From Escherichia coli (GTDB taxonomy: Bacteria > Pseudomonadota > Gammaproteobacteria > Enterobacterales > Enterobacteriaceae): a stretch of 64,000 nucleotides of DNA. The stretch lies in assembly GCF_044324785.1 (NCBI RefSeq), contig NZ_CP172127.1; one strand, written 5' to 3'. The position numbers and the translations under genes are program-made. This document shows positions 10,344 to 63,924 of this stretch, piece by piece. The stretch's first letter is position 1, and each line of letters starts with the position of its first letter. Below the pieces are notes generated by a model. The model saw only the letters and a program-made list of their open reading frames with translations, ran no database searches and was not told the DNA's origin.

Positions 10344-10862
10344 ATGTCCATCCGTTTTGCCCGCAAAGCCGACTGTGCTGCCATTGCGGAAATTTATAAC
10401 CACGCTGTGTTGTATACGGCGGCTATCTGGAATGACCAAACGGTGGATGCAGATAACCGCATTGCCTGGTTCGAAGCGCGGACTTTAGCAGGTTATCCAG
10501 TGCTGGTGAGCGAGGAAAACGGCGTAGTGACGGGATATGCCTCGTTTGGCGACTGGCGTAGTTTCGATGGTTTTCGCCATACCGTGGAACATTCGGTTTA
10601 TGTCCATCCCGATCATCAGGGCAAAGGTCTGGGGCGTAAATTGTTAAGCCGATTGATTGATGAAGCGCGGGATTGCGGGAAGCATGTCATGGTCGCGGGG
10701 ATCGAATCACAAAATCAGGCTTCGCTGCATCTGCACCAGTCGCTGGGATTTGTCGTCACCGCACAAATGCCGCAGGTGGGCACTAAATTTGGGCGCTGGC
10801 TGGATCTGACATTTATGCAGTTGCAACTCGACGAGCGCACTGAACCGGACGCGATTGGATGA
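10344..10862 (+). CDS. mnaT: GNAT-family L-amino acid N-acyltransferase
   Basis: ATG at 10344 (MSIRFARKADCAAIAEIYNH…), 172 aa, GNAT motifs. The ORF-track start at 10110 is an upstream extension. Confidence 0.85.
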   Translation: MSIRFARKADCAAIAEIYNHAVLYTAAIWNDQTVDADNRIAWFEARTLAGYPVLVSEENGVVTGYASFGDWRSFDGFRHTVEHSVYVHPDHQGKGLGRKLLSRLIDEARDCGKHVMVAGIESQNQASLHLHQSLGFVVTAQMPQVGTKFGRWLDLTFMQLQLDERTEPDAIG

Positions 10863-11308
10863 ATCAGTCGCTTACCCTTGCTTTTTTGATTGCCGCCGGA
10901 ATTGGTCTGGTGGTGCAAAACACGCTGATGGTGCGCATCACCCAGACCTCCTCTACCATTCTCATCGCCATGCTGCTGAACTCACTGGTGGGGATTGTGC
11001 TCTTTGTATCTATTTTATGGTTTAAACAAGGCATGGCGGGGTTTGGCGAACTGGTGTCCAGCGTGCGCTGGTGGACACTTATACCTGGCTTGCTGGGATC
11101 GTTTTTTGTCTTCGCCAGTATCAGCGGATATCAGAATGTGGGGGCGGCTACGACTATTGCGGTACTGGTCGCCAGTCAGTTGATTGGCGGTCTGGTGCTG
11201 GATATCTTTCGCAGTCATGGCGTACCACTACGGGCGTTGATCGGCCCAATTTGTGGCGCAATTTTACTTGTGGTTGGTGCCTGGCTGGTGGCCAGGCGCA
11301 CATTTTAA
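10859..11308 (+). CDS. ydcZ: Inner-membrane protein, DUF606 family
   Basis: 149-aa hydrophobic ORF; its start overlaps the mnaT stop (ATGA). Confidence 0.8.
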   Translation: MNQSLTLAFLIAAGIGLVVQNTLMVRITQTSSTILIAMLLNSLVGIVLFVSILWFKQGMAGFGELVSSVRWWTLIPGLLGSFFVFASISGYQNVGAATTIAVLVASQLIGGLVLDIFRSHGVPLRALIGPICGAILLVVGAWLVARRTF

Positions 11309-11542
11309 TCAGAGGATGGTGCCACCTTTGGTTAACTGTTCGTGGCGCGCTTCCATATCTTCTTTATGCTTGCGACCGTGATGAGCAATAGCGGTGCGCA
11401 AACGCTGCTGCTGGGTGTAGCGATCTTCCCGACTTAACTCCGCGTCATCGCTCAGGGCGATTAATAATTCGTTCATATGGGCAATGACGCTCTCTTCAAT
11501 CGCGGCATCCACGCGCGCGATGACTTCATCCAGATGCGACAT
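11309..11542 (-). CDS. ydcY: Small uncharacterised protein
   Basis: 77-aa ORF convergent with ydcZ, the two stop codons abutting; synteny. Confidence 0.7.
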   Translation of the reverse strand: MSHLDEVIARVDAAIEESVIAHMNELLIALSDDAELSREDRYTQQQRLRTAIAHHGRKHKEDMEARHEQLTKGGTIL

Positions 11543-12091: not shown

Positions 12092-12492
12092 TGTAGTGAT
12101 TTTGCACGCAGCACGTACTGTCAGAGAAATCAACTCTCTGACAGTACACAAGATCTTCTCATACTCTCCAGGTTTACAACATTATCCTTAATATTTACTT
12201 CTTTTTGCTGGCATCTACATTGAAATGAGTAGAAAACATCCCCCTACTGTCGTCTATACAAACAGCTTACTGATTCAAAGGGAATCTTGTTTTCACATTT
12301 TTCTATCATCAATACTTTAGACGCGCGGGAGTCTATAAATGCTTTATACTTTCAAGGAATAACGTAAATATAAAAAGATGGCGTAAAGTATATGCATGGC
12401 AGGATGATTGCAACCTCCTTGATGACGCTGTCCCATTGAAATTGCAAACCCCGCACTGGTTATCTTACTCATTTATCATGTAAAACAGACAA

Positions 12493-13302
12493 TTATAGGT
12501 CTCTGAATATCTCAGAAAGATTGAATTTTTTATAGTCCCTCTCTTGAATATTTCCATTTGATATCAATCGATTCATCTCTTCAACAAAATAATTTATATC
12601 ATCACATTTGTTATTATCCGGAAGATCTGAGTAATTATAATTCCACCACTTTATTCTCAACAATTCATCAATAATATTTGAATCAAATCTAAATCTGATT
12701 ATTTTTGCAGGAACTCCTGCAACTATGGCATATGGGGGCACATCTTTGGTAACAACGGAATTGGCAGCAATAACAGCACCATCACCTATTGCGATACCAC
12801 CTTTCAATACAACATCATTTCCTATCCAGACATCATTTCCTATAATCGGATTTTCAGGTTTGGTAATGAATGGTTTCAATGCCCAGCTACGTTCAAACTC
12901 ACTCATAGCAAACTTATCAAATTCACCGTTATAAGTCATCATGTGAGTAGTAAAACGATTCAAAGGATGATTTCCACCCATTATTTTTACATTTGATGCA
13001 ATACTACAAAATCGACCTATATGTATATTCCCTGTAAAATGACAGGTCGGAAATGAAAAAGCGCCGACACTGGAGAAATTTTTTACAGGCATTGTTGAAT
13101 ATTCTTCAGCAATAACATTATCTTCAATTGTTATCTTGTCACCTTTTGAGAAAAGAAATAAATTCCTTTCTTTATACGACTTCTTCCCCTTATGATTTAA
13201 AAAGATTTTATTATCCATACAAAACTCAAAGTGTTTTTTCGTCCACCTGAAGGTAAGGGTTTTATTTTTATCTTCCGTGAATTTATACAATTGAACTTTC
13301 AT
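12493..13302 (-). CDS. Hexapeptide-repeat (left-handed beta-helix) acetyltransferase of the xenobiotic acetyltransferase family, Vat/CatB-like
   Basis: 269-aa ORF in an AT-rich island. C-terminal block IGNDVWIGNDVVLKGGIAIGDGAVIAANSVVTKDVPPYAIVAGVPAKIIRFRFD…LLRIKWWNY closely resembles the Vat(D)/CatB signature as I remember it. True start may be an internal Met. Confidence 0.75.
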   Translation of the reverse strand: MKVQLYKFTEDKNKTLTFRWTKKHFEFCMDNKIFLNHKGKKSYKERNLFLFSKGDKITIEDNVIAEEYSTMPVKNFSSVGAFSFPTCHFTGNIHIGRFCSIASNVKIMGGNHPLNRFTTHMMTYNGEFDKFAMSEFERSWALKPFITKPENPIIGNDVWIGNDVVLKGGIAIGDGAVIAANSVVTKDVPPYAIVAGVPAKIIRFRFDSNIIDELLRIKWWNYNYSDLPDNNKCDDINYFVEEMNRLISNGNIQERDYKKFNLSEIFRDL

Positions 13303-13477
13303 TGTTAATACTTCTACTTATAAATTATTAGGTTAATAACGATACTCTAAAGCCTTATGCGAATCAACTATGACAGGATGAAAAATCACCAACATACATT
13401 TAGATCATAATAACTGCCTAATTTTTCCGCTAGTTATTAATGTAATCATTCTGATACTTAATCACCATTACACTCAG

Positions 13478-13516
13478 AACCTAAAACGATAGTGGCCGCC
13501 CTATAACAGCCACTAA
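13478..13516 (-). terminator. Putative patD terminator hairpin
   Basis: Inverted repeat tagtggc / gccacta just downstream of the patD stop, with a T-run following on the minus strand. Confidence 0.4.
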
Positions 13517-13524
13517 CATTTAAC

Positions 13525-25620: not shown

Positions 25621-25645
25621 AAAAAGCGCCATCTTACGATGGCGC
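25621..25645. terminator. Bidirectional terminator between convergent ydcO and ydcL
   Basis: aaaaa-GCGCCATC-ttac-GATGGCGC: 8-bp stem with an A5 flank, giving a U-tract on the minus strand. Confidence 0.55.
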
Positions 25646-28207: not shown

Positions 28208-28330
28208 CTTCTTACTCATTTTGTTTAATTTATAAAGTATATTTGAAATGCATTTTATGGAATTTTCTCGAGCATAGCCAGAGCCGCAGAATTTGCTACG
28301 GTTATAGTAAGTCACCTGTGGGAAAACGCT

Positions 28331-29311
28331 ATGCGCAAATATCGTCTAAGTGAAGAACAGCGAGCCTTTAGTTATCAGGAAGATGGCACTAAAAAAAGTG
28401 TGTTATTACGGCAGATTATCGCCATTAGCGATTTTAACGATGTGATAGCAGGAACCGCTGGCGGCTGGATCGATCGCGAAACGGTGTTAGCACAGGAAGG
28501 AAATTGCTGGATTTACGACCAGAATGCTATTGCGTTCGGCGGAACGGTGATTTCCGGTAATACGCGCATCACCGGCACCAGCGTACTGTGGGGAGAGGTT
28601 TACGCAACGGATAACGTCTGGATCGATAATAGTGAAATCAGCCTGGGTGCATATATAAGTGACAGCGTCACCATTCGTGGCTCATTAGTTTGCGGTCAAT
28701 GTAGAATATTTGGTCACGCCTTAATTGATCAACATTCTATGATCGTCGCCGCACAAGGCTTAACGCCCGACCATCAACTCCTGCTCCAAATTTATGATCG
28801 CGCAAGGGTTAGCGCCTCGCGTATTGTCCACCAGGCACAAATTTATGGCGATGCCGTCGTCCGGTATGCTTTTATTGAACATCGCGCCGAAGTTTTTGAT
28901 TTTGCCAGTGTTGAAGGTAATGAAGAGAACAACGTCTGGCTATGTGATTGCGCTAAAGTTTACGGTCATGCGCAGGTGAAAGCTGGCATAGAAGAAGATG
29001 CCATTCCGACGATTCATTACAGTTCACAGGTGGCGGAATATGCCATTGTGGAAGGTAATTGTGTGTTAAAACATCATGTCTTGATTGGCGGAAATGCCGT
29101 GGTACGTGGCGGACCGATTCTGCTCGACGAGCACGTTGTAATACAAGGTGAGAGCCGTATTACAGGTGCGGTGATAATTGAAAACCATGTGGAGTTAACC
29201 GACCACGCCGTCGTTGAAGCCTTTGATGGCGACACGGTTCATGTCCGTGGTCCAAAAGTCATTAACGGCGAGGAGCGCATTACGCGAACGCCGCTGGCAG
29301 GGTTATTGTGA
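28331..29311 (+). CDS. ydcK: Uncharacterised beta-helix-repeat protein
   Basis: 326-aa ORF with repetitive hexapeptide-like segments; synteny. Confidence 0.85.
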
Positions 29312-29842
29312 ATCGATAATACGCGCGTATAAGTTCACATCATCATAGGCATCGTTCAGGAATTCAGCCTGTTTCAGGCAACCTTCAAGGATAAAACCAT
29401 TGCGCAAAGCGACCTGGTTGCTTTGCGCATTGTCCACCCGACATTTGATCACGAAGCGTCTAAGTTCACCAGACTGAGCGTAATGATTAATCAATGCCTG
29501 CAGCGCCTGAGAAATGATCCCCTGCCCCTGATGAGATTCGTCCAGCCAGTAGCCGATTTCAGCGGTTTTATTCAGTGGTTCAATACGATTAAACGAGATA
29601 ACGCCGATAAGTTCATCTTCTTTGAAAATCATGAACATTTTGGCATATCCGCGTTGATGCAACATTACATTGCCCTGCACCGTTTTTCGCGTGTCCTCTT
29701 CACTTTGAACAAACTGCGGCCAGTTTAGCGACTGCTGTAACCAGGTTCTATTTTTACAGATTAACTGATAAAGAGGTGTGACATGACTTTCTGCAACAGC
29801 ATGTAATTCAAGTGATTCACTTACTTTTATCGTTTCGGTCAT
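29303..29842 (-). CDS. rimL: Ribosomal-protein-serine N-acetyltransferase (GNAT)
   Basis: [16 protein letters not shown]…, 179 aa; its 3' end overlaps the 3' end of convergent ydcK by 9 bp. Confidence 0.85.
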
Positions 29843-29869
29843 CTTATCTCCAGTCAATCCATGCAGTTG

Positions 29870-29897
29870 TTAAAAAAGCCGCCTGGCTGGCGGCTTA
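29870..29897 (-). terminator. Rho-independent terminator downstream of ydcH
   Basis: AAGCCGCC-tggct-GGCGGCTT hairpin with an A6 flank, giving a U-tract on the minus strand. Confidence 0.55.
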
Positions 29898-29904
29898 GGA
29901 AAGT

Positions 29905-36660: not shown

Positions 36661-36849
<189 letters not shown>

Positions 36850-36920
36850 GGGCAAGCGCGGGGATTTTCCCCGCGCATCTGACTAGCAGATTCATTTTCT
36901 CATGGCACCCCTTTTACACT

Positions 36921-39066: not shown

Positions 39067-39095
39067 AGGCGGAGGAAAAAACCTCCGCCTCTTTC
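39067..39095 (+). terminator. Hairpin terminator between convergent gapC and aldA
   Basis: AGGCGGAGG-aaaaaa-CCTCCGCCT, a perfect 9-bp stem, followed by ctttc. Confidence 0.45.
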
Positions 39096-42763: not shown

Positions 42764-42800
42764 AGAAAAAACCCGGCGCTAAATGCTTACCGGGTTTTAG
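42764..42800. terminator. Bidirectional terminator shared by hrpA and the inserted two-gene cassette
   Basis: aaaaaa-ACCCGG…CCGGGT-tttt hairpin immediately downstream of both convergent units. Confidence 0.5.
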
Positions 42801-47531: not shown

Positions 47532-47584
47532 CCGGACACGGTCTTGATGTGGACTGTAGATATTCAGTCCACATCTCAATCCAC

Positions 47585-58700: not shown

Positions 58701-61700
58701 CCGTAATATTGCCTGCATTATCCGCCGTTGAGTTATCGATGGCTAACATGCCAATGCTACCGCGTCCATACATATCAATGACAGCACCTTCGGCATTGAG
58801 AACAGAGCCTTTATTATACGCCTCCATCCCCATCATGCTTGCTACGCTGTTATTAAACACGCGCTGATCCGTTGACCCCGTGAGTGCAGCCATATTAACA
58901 ACGCTATGTTGCTCCATTACTTTTGAGGTAATTACCCCTTTGTTTACTGCTCTGCCGCCGTTAGAGGTCAAGAAGGCCGTGTTATCTGGTTCCGGTGCTG
59001 GCGTATTAGTTGAGGCATAATCATACAGAGAAAGTGTGATATTCCCGTTATTGATACCTGTGGTATTTTCGCCAAAGATACCAGCAAAGCTGATATTCCA
59101 GATATCAACATTACCGTTATTTATAACCTCAGAGCTACTTTCTGCCTTTATAATCTGTGGTGTTTGTGCATAGTAATGATCATAATTTTCAATATCCCGC
59201 ATATTGAAAGTAGCTTCACTGCCAATCTCAATAGCTGCTTTATTTTTTAACTGGATAAGGCTTGCATATCCTAGTTGCAGATCACCACTGATCGTTGAGT
59301 CACCATTCAGATATATCTTCGATTCACCATCAATACCAATAAGTGGCGTATTACCGAAGAAAGTCCGTTTGTTAGCAATGGCTGAACCATCGGTCAGCGC
59401 ATTTATTTCACCAACAAATGCAATCCCGCCATTCAGATTGATGTTGTTACCATCACCGGAAACAATAAGACCAGAAATATTTTCCTGGCTACCGTCAAAA
59501 TTCGAGACATCACGTGTGGTAGTTTCACCATCCGCAACAAGCGTTAATTTACCATCCAGTGTCACATTGTTATTATGACCACTGACATTTACGCCCACGG
59601 AAGCGTCATAAAAATACTCTGCTGCATTGTCTGCGCTCTGATCTTTATCAACCAGAATATTACCAGTTATATCAATTGTATTGGCATCACCGGAGACGTT
59701 AATACCTGTAGCTTTCTGACCAACGACATTAAGATCCTGCATTGCCATTGTCAGGCTATTATTATCGCCAGTTAATGTCAGCCCTGTTGAAAAATCACCG
59801 ACCTGCATACTTCCCGCGAGGGAGATTTTCCCCTCGTCGCTGGTAATAGCAAATCCCGTCGCTGAATTGCTGACATCCACATCACCGGTATTGGCAAGTG
59901 TCGCGTTGTCGCCATTGATCAGTACACCGATCGAGTCTGCGTCCGTGACGGTCATATTGCCTTTGTTATCGACGGCGGCATTATCGCCAGAAATATCAAT
60001 GCCGTGACCGCCGCCGCTGACATCCAGATCGCCATCCTGGATAACTTTTCCGTTATTGCCGTTGATTTCCGTGCCGGTGGAGTCTTTACCGTCAACGGTG
60101 GTTTTGCCGCTGTTGTTCGCCGTGGCGTCGTCACCGTTAATCTGTGTACCGGTGCCGCCGTTGGTGATGGTGCTCTCGCCTTCGTTGTTAACAACCGCCT
60201 TGTCGCCGTCGATCTGAATACCGATGGACTCCGGATCGGTGACAGTCATGGTACCCTTGTTGTCCACCGTTGCGCTGTCACCGGTAATATCAATCCCGTG
60301 ACCGCCGCCGCTGACGTCCAGATCGCCGTCCTGGATAACTTTTCCGTTATTGCCGTTGATTTCCGTGCCGGTGGAATCTTTACCGTCAACGGTGGTTTTG
60401 CCGCTGTTGTTCGCCGTGGCGTCATCACCGTTAATCTGCGTACCGGTGCCGCCGTTGCTGATGGTGCTGTCGCCTTCGTTGTTAACAACCGCCTTGTCGC
60501 CGTCGATCTGAATACCGATGGACTCCGGATCGGTGACAGTCATGGTACCCTTGTTGTCCACCGTTGCGCTGTCACCGGTAATATCAATCCCGTGACCGCC
60601 GCCGCTGACGTCCAGATCGCCGTCCTGGATAACTTTTCCGTTATTGCCGTTGATTTCCGTGCCGGTGGAATCTTTACCGTCAACGGTGGTTTTGCCGCTG
60701 TTGTTCGCCGTGGCGTCATCACCGTTAATCTGCGTACCGGTGCCGCCGTTGCTGATGGTGCTGTCGCCTTCGTTGTTAACAACCGCCTTGTCGCCGTCGA
60801 TCTGAATACCGATGGACTCCGGATCGGTGACGGTCATGGAGCCCTTGTTATCCACCGTTGAACTGTCACCGGTGATATCAATGCCGTGACCGCCGCCGCT
60901 GACATCCAGATCACCGTCCTGGATAACTTTTCCGTTATTGCCGTTGATTTCCGTGCCGGTGGAATCCTTGCCGTCAACGGTGGTTTTGCCGCTGTTGTTC
61001 GCCGTGGCGTCATCACCGTTAATCTGCGTACCGGTGCCGCCATTGCTGATGGTGCTGTCGCCTTCGTTGTTAACAACAGCCTTGTCGCCGTCGATCTGAA
61101 TACCGATGGACTCCGGATCGGTGACGGTCATGGTGCCCTTGTTATCCACCGTTGAACTGTCACCGGTGATATCAATGCCGTGACCGCCGCCGCTGACATC
61201 CAGATCACCGTCCTGGATAACTTTTCCGTTATTGCCGTTGATTTCCGTGCCGGTGGAATCCTTGCCGTCAACGGTGGTTTTGCCGCTGTTGTTCGCCGTG
61301 GCGTCATCACCGTTAATCTGCGTACCGGTGCCGCCGTTGCTGATGGTGCTGTCGCCTTCGTTGTTAACAACCGCCTTGTCGCCGTCGATCTGAATACCGA
61401 TGGACTCCGGATCGGTGACAGTCATGGTACCCTTGTTGTCCACCGTTGCGCTGTCACCGGTAATATCAATCCCGTGACCGCCGCCGCTGACGTCCAGATC
61501 GCCGTCCTGGATAACTTTTCCGTTATTGCCGTTGATTTCCGTGCCGGTGGAATCTTTACCGTCAACGGTGGTTTTGCCGCTGTTGTTCGCCGTGGCGTCA
61601 TCACCGTTAATCTGCGTACCGGTGCCGCCGTTGCTGATGGTGCTGTCGCCTTCGTTGTTAACAACCGCCTTGTCGCCGTCGATCTGAATACCGATGGACT

Positions 61701-63459
61701 CCGGATCGGTGACGGTCATGGAGCCCTTGTTATCCACCGTTGAACTGTCACCGGTGATATCAATGCCGTGACCGCCGCCGCTGACATCCAGATCACCGTC
61801 CTGGATAACTTTTCCGTTATTGCCGTTGATTTCCGTGCCGGTGGAATCCTTGCCGTCAACGGTGGTTTTGCCGCTGTTGTTCGCCGTGGCGTCATCACCG
61901 TTAATCTGCGTACCGGTGCCGCCATTGCTGATGGTGCTGTCGCCTTCGTTGTTAACAACAGCCTTGTCGCCGTCGATCTGAATACCGATGGACTCCGGAT
62001 CGGTGACGGTCATGGTGCCCTTGTTATCCACCGTTGAACTGTCACCGGTGATATCAATGCCGTGACCGCCGCCGCTGACATCCAGATCACCGTCCTGGAT
62101 AACTTTTCCGTTATTGCCGTTGATTTCCGTGCCGGTGGAATCCTTGCCGTCAACGGTGGTTTTGCCGCTGTTGTTCGCCGTGGCGTCATCACCGTTAATC
62201 TGCGTACCGGTGCCGCCATTGCTGATGGTGCTGTCGCCTTCGTTATTGACAACCGCCTTGTCACCGTCAATCCGGATACCCATGGACTCCGGATCGGTGA
62301 CAGTCATCGTGCCCTTGTTATCCACCGTCGCACTGTCACCGGTGATATCAATCCCGTGACCGCCGCCGCTGACGTCCAGATCGCCGTCCTGGATAACTTT
62401 CCCGTTATTACCGTTGATTTCCGTGCCGGTGGAGTCTTTACCGTCAACGGTGGTTTTGCCGCTGTTGTTCGCCGTGGCGTCGTCACCGTTAATCTGCGTG
62501 CCGGTGCCGCCGTTGCTGATGGTGCTCTCGCCTTCGTTATTGACGATGGCCTTGTCACCGTCAATCCGGATACCCATGGACTCCGGATCGGTGACAGTCA
62601 TGGTGCCCTTGTTATCCACCGTCGCGCTGTCGCCGGTGATATCAATGCCGTGACCGCCGCCGCTGACGTCCAGATCGCCGTCCTGGATAACTTTCCCGTT
62701 ATTACCGTTGATTTCCGTGCCGGTGGAGTCTTTACCGTCAACGGTGGTTTTGCCATTGTTGTTTACTGTGGCATTATCACCCGTAATAACAAGCTCACCG
62801 TTGTGATTGTATTGCCACTTCGTTGCGCCATCTGCGCTCACCCCTTCAAGGGCAACAGTGTTATTTGCTTCATCAATCTGCCAAAGATTAATTGTTGCCT
62901 TACGACCACTGTTATCTTGCAGAGAAATAGTCCCGTCAGCATTCTCGGTATAAGTAAAAACTGAATCGCGAATAGTTAACGTTTTTTCTGTTTTATCGAG
63001 AATAACGTCATTATTAAACGAAATCGGTTTGGAAGGTGTAGGGGTATCATCCGGATCGTCCGGTATTATCTCATCTCCGCCTGGAGTTGGAGGCACTGGA
63101 GTATCGTCTGAATCATCATCGGGTGGTGTCGGCGGTACAGGGGCATTGTTGCGATGATGATGATTACCATCGTCGTTTAGTTCGACGACCGCCAGCGCGG
63201 TGATTAATGCAAAGGCACCAGAGGCAACCCACGGCATAAGGTTTTGCTGTACTTGTGGAGAACATTCGGGAGGTATTTGCTTTAACGCTTCCGGAGTCAG
63301 CATGTCAGGGTCTGCCGGACAAGTCACATTGGTATTTTTCTTTTCGCCTGTGGCCGTTTCTGTCTCTGTAATATCAGCCGCCCACCCCTGACCACTCAGA
63401 GCTAATGCAATACAGGCTGATAATAGGGTTTTCCTTTGCATAATAAATCCTTCTGACAA
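55774..63459 (-). CDS. ydbA: Giant autotransporter adhesin-like protein YdbA, uninterrupted
   Basis: 2561-codon ORF. Signal peptide (MQRKTLLSACIALALSGQGWA; the start may be the internal ATG at 63441), Pro/Asp-rich linker, repetitive passenger domain, and a C-terminal beta-barrel region ending in F. Confidence 0.9.
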   Translation of the reverse strand: MSEGFIMQRKTLLSACIALALSGQGWAADITETETATGEKKNTNVTCPADPDMLTPEALKQIPPECSPQVQQNLMPWVASGAFALITALAVVELNDDGNHHHRNNAPVPPTPPDDDSDDTPVPPTPGGDEIIPDDPDDTPTPSKPISFNNDVILDKTEKTLTIRDSVFTYTENADGTISLQDNSGRKATINLWQIDEANNTVALEGVSADGATKWQYNHNGELVITGDNATVNNNGKTTVDGKDSTGTEINGNNGKVIQDGDLDVSGGGHGIDITGDSATVDNKGTMTVTDPESMGIRIDGDKAIVNNEGESTISNGGTGTQINGDDATANNSGKTTVDGKDSTGTEINGNNGKVIQDGDLDVSGGGHGIDITGDSATVDNKGTMTVTDPESMGIRIDGDKAVVNNEGDSTISNGGTGTQINGDDATANNSGKTTVDGKDSTGTEINGNNGKVIQDGDLDVSGGGHGIDITGDSSTVDNKGTMTVTDPESIGIQIDGDKAVVNNEGDSTISNGGTGTQINGDDATANNSGKTTVDGKDSTGTEINGNNGKVIQDGDLDVSGGGHGIDITGDSSTVDNKGSMTVTDPESIGIQIDGDKAVVNNEGDSTISNGGTGTQINGDDATANNSGKTTVDGKDSTGTEINGNNGKVIQDGDLDVSGGGHGIDITGDSATVDNKGTMTVTDPESIGIQIDGDKAVVNNEGDSTISNGGTGTQINGDDATANNSGKTTVDGKDSTGTEINGNNGKVIQDGDLDVSGGGHGIDITGDSSTVDNKGTMTVTDPESIGIQIDGDKAVVNNEGDSTISNGGTGTQINGDDATANNSGKTTVDGKDSTGTEINGNNGKVIQDGDLDVSGGGHGIDITGDSSTVDNKGSMTVTDPESIGIQIDGDKAVVNNEGDSTISNGGTGTQINGDDATANNSGKTTVDGKDSTGTEINGNNGKVIQDGDLDVSGGGHGIDITGDSATVDNKGTMTVTDPESIGIQIDGDKAVVNNEGDSTISNGGTGTQINGDDATANNSGKTTVDGKDSTGTEINGNNGKVIQDGDLDVSGGGHGIDITGDSATVDNKGTMTVTDPESIGIQIDGDKAVVNNEGESTITNGGTGTQINGDDATANNSGKTTVDGKDSTGTEINGNNGKVIQDGDLDVSGGGHGIDISGDNAAVDNKGNMTVTDADSIGVLINGDNATLANTGDVDVSNSATGFAITSDEGKISLAGSMQVGDFSTGLTLTGDNNSLTMAMQDLNVVGQKATGINVSGDANTIDITGNILVDKDQSADNAAEYFYDASVGVNVSGHNNNVTLDGKLTLVADGETTTRDVSNFDGSQENISGLIVSGDGNNINLNGGIAFVGEINALTDGSAIANKRTFFGNTPLIGIDGESKIYLNGDSTISGDLQLGYASLIQLKNKAAIEIGSEATFNMRDIENYDHYYAQTPQIIKAESSSEVINNGNVDIWNISFAGIFGENTTGINNGNITLSLYDYASTNTPAPEPDNTAFLTSNGGRAVNKGVITSKVMEQHSVVNMAALTGSTDQRVFNNSVASMMGMEAYNKGSVLNAEGAVIDMYGRGSIGMLAIDNSTADNAGNITVDTLWIDDNDTTSLRTDLPGATAKDYGVGMATGTDTGGGARNNAIATNLEGGVITVYNAGAGMAAYGNSNMVINQGIINLEKNADYDANLGSNTLVGMAVYKGATAINDQTGVININVDTGQAFYNDGTGIILNYGEINLNGAEIDSADSHYGAPAENLELLSELSASGENITKTVTRDGFVTIKPLANYGTEILNGDVDANLWLYNEDKASLTVNGDLNIVQGLENSGSMDVDKLTANASVYNRASGSMTTELLMLKGGSAFFNEGSFSGVISGDSYKQNVVNTGEMTTATDGSALINGSFVLYNEAGSTLTNSGNAIAGGENAIVNITRTSDSLSQVNRGKIIATNGYSAIKTASTGSNSNGKWIWNTENGVINGINPDAPLIDLGRGYNFANAGTINVQGDGSVAISGGTTSYTVQLVNSGTINVGTEQGKADGSNGEGLIGIKGNGSATTINNTKDGVINVYADNSWAFGGSTKAIVNNGIINLLCNIGCEIYAPNTTGTRNSQDGTADIIVPVASATPGQGNVPAAPVNAVSQQKLTNYTIGTNSDGSSGTLKANNLVISDNVKVNTGFSAGTADTTVVIDDVFKGENISGAENITSSSVVWNAKGSTDASGNVDVTMSKNAYTDVATDASVNDVAKALDAGYTNNELYTSLNVGTTAELNSALKQVSGSQATTVFREARVLSNRFSMLADAAPKVGNGLAFNVVAKGDPRAELGNNTEYDMLALRKTIDLSESQTMSLEYGIARLDGDGAQKAGDNGVTGGYSQFFGLKHQMSFDNGMNWNNALRYDVHNLDSSRSIAFSNTNKTADTDVKQQYLEFRSEGAKTFEPSEGLKVTPYAGVKLRHTLEGGYQERNAGDFNLNMNSGSETAVDSIVGLKLDYAGKDGWSASATLEGGPNLSYAKSQRTASLAGAGSQHFNVDDGQKGGGINSLASVGVKYSSKESSLNLDAYHWKEDGISDKGVMLNFKKTF
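59900..62760. repeat. Tandem in-frame repeats inside ydbA: about 10 copies of a 294-bp (98-codon) unit
   Basis: Protein unit GKTTVDGKDSTGTEINGNNGKVIQDGDLDVSGGGHGIDITGD…NGGTGTQINGDDATANNS recurs about ten times. Alternate-frame shadow ORFs recur at exactly 294-bp spacing (60246, 60540, 60834, 61128, 61422, 61716, 62010, 62304), several with identical translations. Confidence 0.9.
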
Positions 63460-63924
63460 ATATAAAGAACGCCAGAATTCATAAAGATCATTGAAATCAA
63501 CAACCCTTACAAATATCTGACTGTAAAATATTCAAAAAATATATGATAAGCATTCTATATTGTCAGCAGTACATTATTCAACCTATTTTGTTGATGTTTC
63601 CTAAATATAGATGCGGTGAATGTATAACAACATAAAAACAATATTTATATATGATTAAAAATCTTCTCAAGACAATAATAATTTCGATGTTAAATTCGCA
63701 CAGAGAATATTATTAATGTTGATTATTTGTTGGGGTTATTTATTTGATGAGCAGCAATTCACTAGAGTTGCAAACGCCTCTCTTGTAAGACATTCATCTT
63801 TTCTCAGGAATGCCGATGTAATCGGTGTGCTCCTTTGCAGCAACACGCTGCTCTATGATCTTGTTAACTAATACCCTATTTTTCACCGACTACTACCAAA
63901 TGGTGTTTGAACTACCGTTGCATG

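Follow-up and report, generated by a model that had tools for sequence, protein, structure and literature searches.

Convergent overlapping genes of prokaryotes are reportedly the subject of works by Fukuda (2003) and by Johnson and Chisholm (2004), and Rho-dependent antisense termination in E. coli is said to have been treated by Peters et al. (2012). For E. coli, 58 convergent overlaps have been counted (Lillo and Krakauer, 2007; PMC2174442), and 23 of the 116 convergently overlapping genes carry a predicted Rho-independent terminator, which necessarily lies within the partner gene. Among the Rho termination regions mapped in E. coli, 51.5% are antisense to genes, and the ends left by Rho are shortened by exonucleases (Adams et al., 2021; PMC7815308). 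ExcludonFinder has called 165 convergent excludons in at least 50% of 58 MG1655 transcriptomes, the rimL-ydcK pair among them (NAR 2025; PMC12288877), and excludon pairs as a class show higher synteny and less single-cell co-expression. A further model, in which polymerases collide at a required junction hairpin, has been proposed for many convergent pairs of E. coli (bioRxiv 10.1101/2022.10.23.513370).

Here we compare with these systems two tail-to-tail gene pairs, ydcK/rimL and ydcZ/ydcY, found in a stretch of E. coli DNA of 64,000 nucleotides (hereafter the window). Both are most probably ordinary compact tail-to-tail junctions of E. coli and not a special device. The layout seems ordinary because it is common, has long been annotated, and has transcripts that end inside the neighbouring gene, mainly via Rho.

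Geometry and frequency of the two junctions

The window is oriented in reverse relative to K-12, and K-12 positions were converted to window coordinates in this analysis. The annotation of strain N3 was mapped onto the window, with an identity of 97.6–98.9% overall and of 100% over positions 28300–29900; among the complete genomes searched, none matches the window without differences. The features discussed below are collected in Table 1.

Table 1. Features of the ydcZ/ydcY and ydcK/rimL junctions, in window coordinates.
Feature	Position	Strand	Basis
ydcZ CDS, 149 aa, DMT_YdcZ family transporter	10859..11308	+	ORF list, annotation, Pfam PF04657 on orthologues
ydcY transcription continuing antisense to ydcZ	10909..11271	-	K-12 Rho region, C/G
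Equivalent of K-12 ydcY Term-seq 3' end 1517918	11272	-	Position checked on K-12 sequence
GC-rich hairpin, 10 pairs, encoded by ydcZ codons 140-147 (GAWLVARR)	11277..11299	both	Terminator-like scan, folds
ydcY CDS, 77 aa, DUF2526	11309..11542	-	ORF list, annotation, 681 homologues, PF10735
ydcK CDS, 326 aa, YdcK family putative acyltransferase	28331..29311	+	ORF list, RefSeq annotation, Salmonella YdcK structure 2F9C/2PIG
Untranslated rimL transcript continuation, antisense to ydcK, C-rich/G-poor	28903..29302	-	C/G, K-12 Rho region
Tail-to-tail ydcK/rimL overlap, 9 bp, TTATTGTGA	29303..29311	both	Sequence
rimL CDS, 179 aa, ribosomal protein L7/L12 serine acetyltransferase	29303..29842	-	ORF list, annotation, Salmonella RimL 1S7F/1Z9U

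In the raw sequence ydcK ends in GGG TTA TTG TGA, with its TGA stop at 29309–29311, and the TAA stop of rimL is the reverse complement of the tta at 29303–29305. These are facing coding genes on opposite strands with 9 bp in common, where a single shared nucleotide is enough to define a convergent overlap. The shared TTATTGTGA codes for Leu-Leu-stop of YdcK on the + strand and for Ser-Gln-stop of RimL on the − strand, the codons of both genes being in register. At the other junction the end of ydcZ reads ACA TTT TAA, with the TAA stop at 11306–11308, and is directly adjoined by the TGA stop of ydcY (the tca at 11309–11311, read in reverse complement). With 0 bp between the stop codons and no common base, ydcZ and ydcY abut, and the shared nucleotide that defines an overlapping pair is lacking.

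RefSeq places the gene ends identically in strain N3 and in K-12 MG1655 at both junctions, the K-12 MG1655 coordinates being 1498938–1499477 for rimL and 1499469–1500449 for ydcK, and 1517648–1517881 for ydcY and 1517882–1518331 for ydcZ. The 9-bp overlap and the abutting stop codons of the original prediction are thus borne out by the ORF listing, the raw sequence and RefSeq alike. Within the species, the 61-bp ydcK/rimL junction was found in 5412 of 5426 complete genomes, and the annotated 9-bp overlap is retained in the two divergent E. coli examples that were inspected. The 81-bp ydcZ/ydcY junction of the window gave megablast matches in only 329 of the 5426 genomes, and the 3' end of ydcZ in the window is a different allele from that of K-12, with 4 differences within the hairpin described below.

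The 12 convergent pairs of the window have spacings of −23, −9, 0, 35, 37, 37, 41, 53, 91, 102, 112 and ~402 bp, which amounts to 2 overlaps (ydcK/rimL and hokB/yncP) and 1 abutment. A count of 58 per genome leads to an expectation of ~0.8 convergent overlaps per 64 kb, and the corresponding Poisson probability of observing at least 2 is ~0.19, meaning that the overlaps of the window are not above chance. As a separate observation, the pair with −23 bp is hokB/yncP, which overlaps at 36827–36849 and was missing from the list of the original prediction.

Transcript ends and junction hairpins

A consensus terminator scan found terminator-like sites no more frequently than in shuffled sequences in both regions, with none 3' of the four stops, and an independent scan for a hairpin followed by a U-tract found no such intrinsic terminator downstream of any of them. 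To this extent the original prediction, which held that no room is left for separate terminators, is correct: there is no intergenic space and no canonical terminator 3' of the four stops. Nothing unusual follows from this, as the termination signals of E. coli lie routinely within the coding sequence of a neighbour (the 51.5% of antisense Rho regions and the 23 of 116 genes cited above).

Published RNA-seq of K-12 MG1655 (DirectRNA-seq with and without bicyclomycin) gives a Rho termination region at 1499587(+), antisense to ydcK, with a score of 4.3 (p = 1.5e-8) and downstream/upstream coverage of 20/82 without bicyclomycin and 144/137 with it (Adams et al., 2021; PMC7815308). A second region, at 1518196(+) and antisense to ydcZ, has a score of 15.8 (p = 2e-25) and downstream/upstream coverage of 9/164 without and 185/213 with the inhibitor (PMC7815308). 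These positions are approximate, being drawn from 800-nt coverage windows, and they put the peaks ~110 nt beyond the rimL stop (window ~29193) and ~315 nt beyond the ydcY stop (window ~10994). The RNA past both stops should be a good Rho substrate since it is untranslated, C-rich and G-poor. Over the 400 nt past the rimL stop the C/G ratio is 1.53, with values of up to 2.27 in 80-nt windows. Past the ydcY stop the ratio is 1.32, rising to 2.08, and the RNA that follows ydcK (1.26) and ydcZ (1.13) has lower values. The rimL and ydcY transcripts thus display both traits of Rho-dependent termination, namely read-through that is sensitive to bicyclomycin (in K-12) and RNA of the appropriate composition.

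Term-seq of K-12 adds a 3' end at 1517918(+), classed as "primary ydcY, antisense ydcZ" (PMC7815308, supplementary file 1, where this end has two listings with differing read values). It is situated 37 nt beyond the ydcY stop and 5 nt beyond the hairpin encoded by ydcZ, as counted in K-12. The K-12 data of Adams et al. (2021; PMC7815308) report no Term-seq 3' end for rimL, and neither a 3' end nor a Rho region for the ydcK and ydcZ transcripts; a literature search on ydcY and ydcZ returned nothing relevant.

In K-12, these published data show that the rimL and ydcY transcripts pass their own stops into the antisense strand of the partner and are terminated by Rho, and we infer the same transcript ends in this strain. 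The antisense overlap of 3' ends that had been predicted is confirmed in K-12 by the excludome entry for rimL-ydcK, by the Rho regions antisense to ydcK and ydcZ, and by the Term-seq end of ydcY inside ydcZ. Transcriptional interference, in the sense of transcription of one gene altering the expression of its partner, is unproven for either pair.

A simple sequence of events probably accounts for these ends. Past their stops, the rimL and ydcY mRNAs run antisense to the partner as untranslated, C-rich, G-poor RNA and, in K-12, are ended there by Rho. The stable 3' end of ydcY would then most simply be the product of 3'-to-5' exonuclease trimming back to the stem-loop encoded by ydcZ. In the opposite direction, the mnaT-ydcZ transcript may be ended by Rho inside the antisense ydcY, with the hairpin and the UUUU across the ydcZ stop acting perhaps as a weak terminator or pause site, and the ydcK transcript, which has no conserved signal, would probably also be ended by Rho, inside the antisense rimL. 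Whenever both partners are transcribed, the complementary stretch of their RNAs would measure from tens of nucleotides up to a few hundred.

Hairpins are found at all 12 convergent junctions of the window, the best hairpin per junction ranging from −11 to −23.5 kcal/mol, and in the ten spacer-bearing pairs the junction hairpin lies mostly within the spacer. The ydcZ hairpin folds with −17.7 kcal/mol on the + strand and −12.9 kcal/mol on the − strand, and matches in strength the hairpins that the other pairs have in their spacers. On the + strand ACATTTTAAT comes after it and extends across the ydcZ stop, and on the − strand the hairpin occupies the stretch 10–32 nt beyond the ydcY stop. Together with ACAUUUUAAU it is placed on the + strand upstream of and across the stop of its own gene, with a spacer of 2–3 nt and only 4 U, and because of this position, spacer and short U run it is at best a weak candidate for an intrinsic terminator.

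Of 8 genera, 7 have this hairpin, with energies between −12.9 and −22.2 kcal/mol when folded in the ydcY sense, and it is weak in Enterobacter; the ydcY-sense RNA forms the more stable hairpin in 4 of 5 non-Escherichia genera, the exception being the weak one of Enterobacter. No compensatory changes were found in it across the 8 genera, synonymous-site conservation is only slightly higher than in the gene as a whole (0.67 compared with a mean of 0.55 ± 0.24), and the stem is completed by a rare arginine codon, AGR, in place of which two genera have CGA. Given that compensatory changes are lacking and synonymous conservation is unexceptional, the hairpin may for the most part be a by-product of the peptide GAWLVARR, which is conserved.

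The best hairpin at ydcK/rimL is the weakest of the 12 junctions (−11.0 kcal/mol on the + strand and −13.8 kcal/mol on the − strand), and no conserved RNA structure was detected just past the rimL stop among 24 loci of other species (RNAalifold −1.98 kcal/mol, 0 compensatory pairs). Separately, a 13-pair hairpin inside rimL (29401–29429), 90 nt beyond the ydcK stop, was considered as a 3'-end element of ydcK and rejected as incidental. It is present in K-12 and broken from E. albertii outward, and no 3' end has been reported there.

The hairpin data also bear on collision-assisted bidirectional termination, in which the ydcZ hairpin would pause polymerases arriving from both sides and head-on and trailing collisions would release them. 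We regard this as improbable for the present junctions. The strength of the ydcZ/ydcY hairpin relative to the spacer hairpins of other pairs, its presence in 7 of 8 genera, the sharp ydcY 3' end 5 nt beyond it and the proposal of the model for so many E. coli pairs are all in keeping with it. However, the terminator class is described as Rho-independent (bioRxiv 10.1101/2022.10.23.513370), and ydcY read-through is strongly Rho-dependent (15.8). A bidirectional terminator would be flanked by Rho-independent 3' ends of both transcripts, and what has been reported is the ydcY end, with its strong Rho dependence, and no 3' end on the ydcZ strand. Collision termination is also described as working better at highly expressed pairs (bioRxiv 10.1101/2022.10.23.513370). 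At ydcK/rimL the model is inapplicable since no conserved hairpin exists there. At ydcZ/ydcY collisions could contribute to termination, a contribution at odds with the strong dependence on Rho.

Conserved spacing and competing readings

A scan for YdcK with one genome per species gave 38 usable loci, in 37 of which a convergent rimL stands immediately downstream. The spacing is exactly −9 in 31 of these 37 Enterobacteriaceae loci, at YdcK identities down to 55%, and the loci concerned belong to Escherichia, Citrobacter, Superficieibacter, Pluralibacter, Yokenella and Trabulsiella. The remaining spacings are +3 (one Superficieibacter), 0, 0 and 0 (Cedecea and Dryocola), −4 (one enterobacterium) and +22 (Buttiauxella). 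The overlap bases themselves vary between loci (TTATTGTGA, TTATTCTGA, TCACTCTGA, CTATTGTGA, TCACTCTAA, TCACGTTGA and TCACTTTGA), and both stop codons vary as well. The −9 pattern can be traced to a conserved YdcK tail combined with a variable RimL tail: the C-terminus of YdcK is conserved as …ITRTPL-x-G-[L/S]-[L/F]-stop, and the core of RimL ends in …YARI[I/V][D/E], after which comes a short tail that varies, being SQ in Escherichia and xxSE in Citrobacter and missing from Cedecea, Dryocola and Buttiauxella.

The two tails are also linked through the code. The RimL stop is the reverse complement of the third-last codon of YdcK (TTA, CTA or TCA), and the last two residues of RimL are set by the last codon and the stop of YdcK. 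Beyond its stop, the RimL frame of the window meets no other antisense stop for more than 15 codons, and loss of the RimL stop would therefore lengthen the protein substantially. The overlap probably originated when the spacer was lost and RimL translation ran into the end of ydcK, up to the first in-frame antisense stop. Thereafter the −9 geometry would be held: a protein would become longer if either stop were lost, and both tails would suffer from an indel within the shared 9 bp. Judged from these sequences, ordinary purifying selection on the stops and on the YdcK tail would be enough to freeze the geometry.

For the other pair, the ydcY/ydcZ spacing is 0–3 bp in 7 of 7 other genomes with both genes: Escherichia sp. 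and Kosakonia have 0 bp between the genes, Trabulsiella and Yokenella have 2 bp, and Enterobacter and Lelliottia have 3 bp. Beside ydcY, ydcZ is absent in S. bongori, in one Citrobacter and in one Pluralibacter locus.

Conserved spacing of this kind, together with the place of rimL-ydcK on the list of 165 convergent excludons, would also be expected of a functional convergent excludon, in which the overlap of rimL/ydcK and ydcY/ydcZ is selected and the partners repress each other via RNA polymerase interference or cleavage of the duplex by RNase III. Across Enterobacteriaceae rimL and ydcK remain convergent neighbours with a spacing close to zero, and the synteny and single-cell co-expression of excludon pairs as a class point the same way. 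We nevertheless consider this reading unlikely. The listing adds little because overlapping coding sequences score as transcript overlap whenever both genes are expressed, which makes an entry near-automatic; the same excludome table contains trg-ydcI, rlhA-yncJ, patD-yncL and yncP-hokB from the window, and ydcY-ydcZ is absent from it (PMC12288877). Transcript overlap as such is present in the published K-12 data, with one direction documented per pair. The literature yielded no pair-specific reciprocal expression data, there is no known functional link between the partners, and read-through of rimL and ydcY is limited by Rho to about 100–300 nt. The conserved geometry can be accounted for by stop-codon and C-terminus constraints alone, and in the S. 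bongori, Citrobacter and Pluralibacter loci ydcZ is simply missing beside ydcY.

It is similarly doubtful that the hairpin of ydcZ codons 140–147 is a selected dual-use element, which would encode GAWLVARR and at the same time set the 3' end and stability of the ydcY mRNA, and perhaps serve mnaT-ydcZ termination at the ydcZ stop, with antisense coupling of expression keeping the spacing of both pairs at zero or below across Enterobacteriaceae.

Finally, the idea that a stop or frame has been miscalled and that the genes neither overlap nor abut, which the original prediction had named as its possible refutation, is scarcely credible, and nothing was found in its favour: the reading frames fix the stop codons, miscalls are ruled out by the match of the window proteins, end to end and to the last residues, with the full-length solved structures of Salmonella RimL (1S7F/1Z9U, 179 aa) and YdcK (2F9C/2PIG, 326 aa plus tag), lengths and stop positions are kept across genera, and every genome examined has the same RefSeq annotation.

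Comparison with known systems

With both junctions read as ordinary, most of what they display is already known. Both have been part of the K-12 annotation for decades, convergent overlaps are a class already well documented, and antisense read-through, Rho dependence and the excludon call are on record in the genome-wide maps of 2021 and 2025. Two minor points are new: the −9 geometry is kept in 31 of 37 loci despite base changes and has a simple explanation in the protein tails, and the junction hairpin at ydcZ/ydcY is shifted into the codons of ydcZ. The significance of the two junctions is low, and they serve as a tidy illustration of transcript ending in E. coli where a spacer is missing, with Rho acting inside the neighbour and a hairpin borrowed from the codons of the neighbour. 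In genome engineering it is worth bearing in mind that the partner's C-terminus or mRNA 3' end can be altered when the final codons of ydcK or ydcZ are recoded or when either gene is deleted.

Compared with the convergent excludons (the Listeria paradigm and the E. coli map), the loci are alike in the 3' overlap between transcripts of facing genes, and the published list includes rimL-ydcK. The outcome that defines an excludon is reciprocal repression with RNase III processing, whereas the resemblance of rimL-ydcK rests on transcript overlap and ydcY-ydcZ is unlisted. The bidirectional hairpin terminators of Ju et al. (2019), as they are described in bioRxiv 10.1101/2022.10.23.513370, have a symmetric GC-rich junction hairpin, and in this ydcZ/ydcY and other pairs of the window are similar. 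They differ from that description in that the ydcZ/ydcY hairpin lies within a coding sequence and read-through is Rho-dependent, and in that ydcK/rimL is without a conserved hairpin.

The likeness to Rho-terminated antisense read-through in E. coli (Adams et al., 2021) is closer, as both loci have untranslated C-rich/G-poor RNA and termination that is sensitive to bicyclomycin in K-12. The 3' ends of this class are trimmed to a hairpin, and the ydcY end can be likened to them. Relative to the class as a whole, the read-through at these loci is mapped for the rimL and ydcY transcripts in K-12.

The convergent overlapping pairs of prokaryotes (Lillo and Krakauer, 2007) share with ydcK/rimL a short 3'-3' overlap whose two stops each serve the partner as a sense codon, and such overlaps are explained by loss of a stop codon or extension into the neighbour, as would fit ydcK/rimL. 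The phase in which codon boundaries coincide (123:321) makes up ~1/3 of convergent overlaps of at least 5 nt (PMC2174442) and is also that of ydcK/rimL. As a class, convergent overlaps tend toward conservation between species, and ydcK/rimL again conforms. The ydcZ/ydcY pair differs from this class in its 0-bp gap, and nothing essential sets ydcK/rimL apart from it.

Hairpins and alleles at the convergent junctions

The internal control for the junction analysis was provided by the other convergent pairs of the window, whose spacers of 35–112 bp carry textbook symmetric hairpins with A/T tracts on their flanks; these six hairpins (listed in the table) look like shared bidirectional terminators. 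The ydcZ/ydcY 3'-end junction (11268-11348) exists as two alleles within E. coli, with the window allele giving a megablast match in only 329 of the 5426 complete E. coli genomes searched. Because the K-12 and window alleles differ at 4 positions inside the ydcZ hairpin, the better stem switches strand between them, lying in the ydcZ sense in the window and in the ydcY sense in K-12.

Features of the window
Feature	Position	Strand	Remark
Spacer hairpin, ansP/yncE	4717-4739
Spacer hairpin, pqqU/mcbR	8234-8257
CatB-related O-acetyltransferase gene	12493-13302	-	269 aa; between yncL and patD, in low-GC segment
Spacer hairpin, ydcO/ydcL	25626-25645
Hairpin within rimL	29401-29429	ydcK-sense	13 pairs, TGCGCAAAGCGAC-CTG-GTTGCTTTGCGCA
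hokB	36700-36849	+	type I toxin gene
Strong hairpin near hokB/yncP overlap	36856-36876
yncP	36827-36895	-	small-protein gene, 22 aa
Spacer hairpin, gap/aldA	39067-39090
Spacer hairpin, hrpA junction	42768-42798
Spacer hairpin, azoR/ynbD	47546-47575

A hairpin inside rimL and the ydcH/rimL transcripts

The hairpin within rimL, located 90 nt downstream of the ydcK stop codon, retains 11 pairs in K-12 and is disrupted in E. albertii and in every other genus examined; no 3' end has been reported at the equivalent K-12 position. Term-seq in K-12 places a “primary” 3' end at 1498877(+), just 2 nt past the ydcH stop codon (Adams et al., 2021; PMC7815308). This corresponds approximately to window position 29903 on the - strand, directly after the ydcH stop and 61 nt before the start of rimL. 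Since the end sits between the two genes, ydcH and rimL may be at least partly separate transcripts.

Accessory sequence and the window ends

The 1.3 kb segment at 12198-13523 has a GC content of 30–36% vs. approximately 51%, is missing in K-12 and in strain N3 (the E. coli strain whose RefSeq annotation was mapped onto the window), and is found in about 1150 of the 5426 genomes, which gives it the look of a small accessory insertion. Judged from the alignment to N3 (only ~97.6% identity over 1-1218), the first bases of the window belong to a type VI secretion vgrG gene; directly upstream of this gene, N3 has a frameshifted RHS core gene. Toward the other end, long tandem repeats (59902-63708; unit ~294 bp, copies 87–94% identical to each other) are part of a very large gene, whose annotation in N3 is “beta strand repeat-containing protein” and which is adjoined by an autotransporter pseudogene.

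A third convergent overlap

hokB and yncP form a third convergent overlap, of 23 bp (36827-36849), which was missing from the overlaps listed in the original prediction. The yncP-hokB pair is included in the published list of convergent excludons of MG1655 (PMC12288877).
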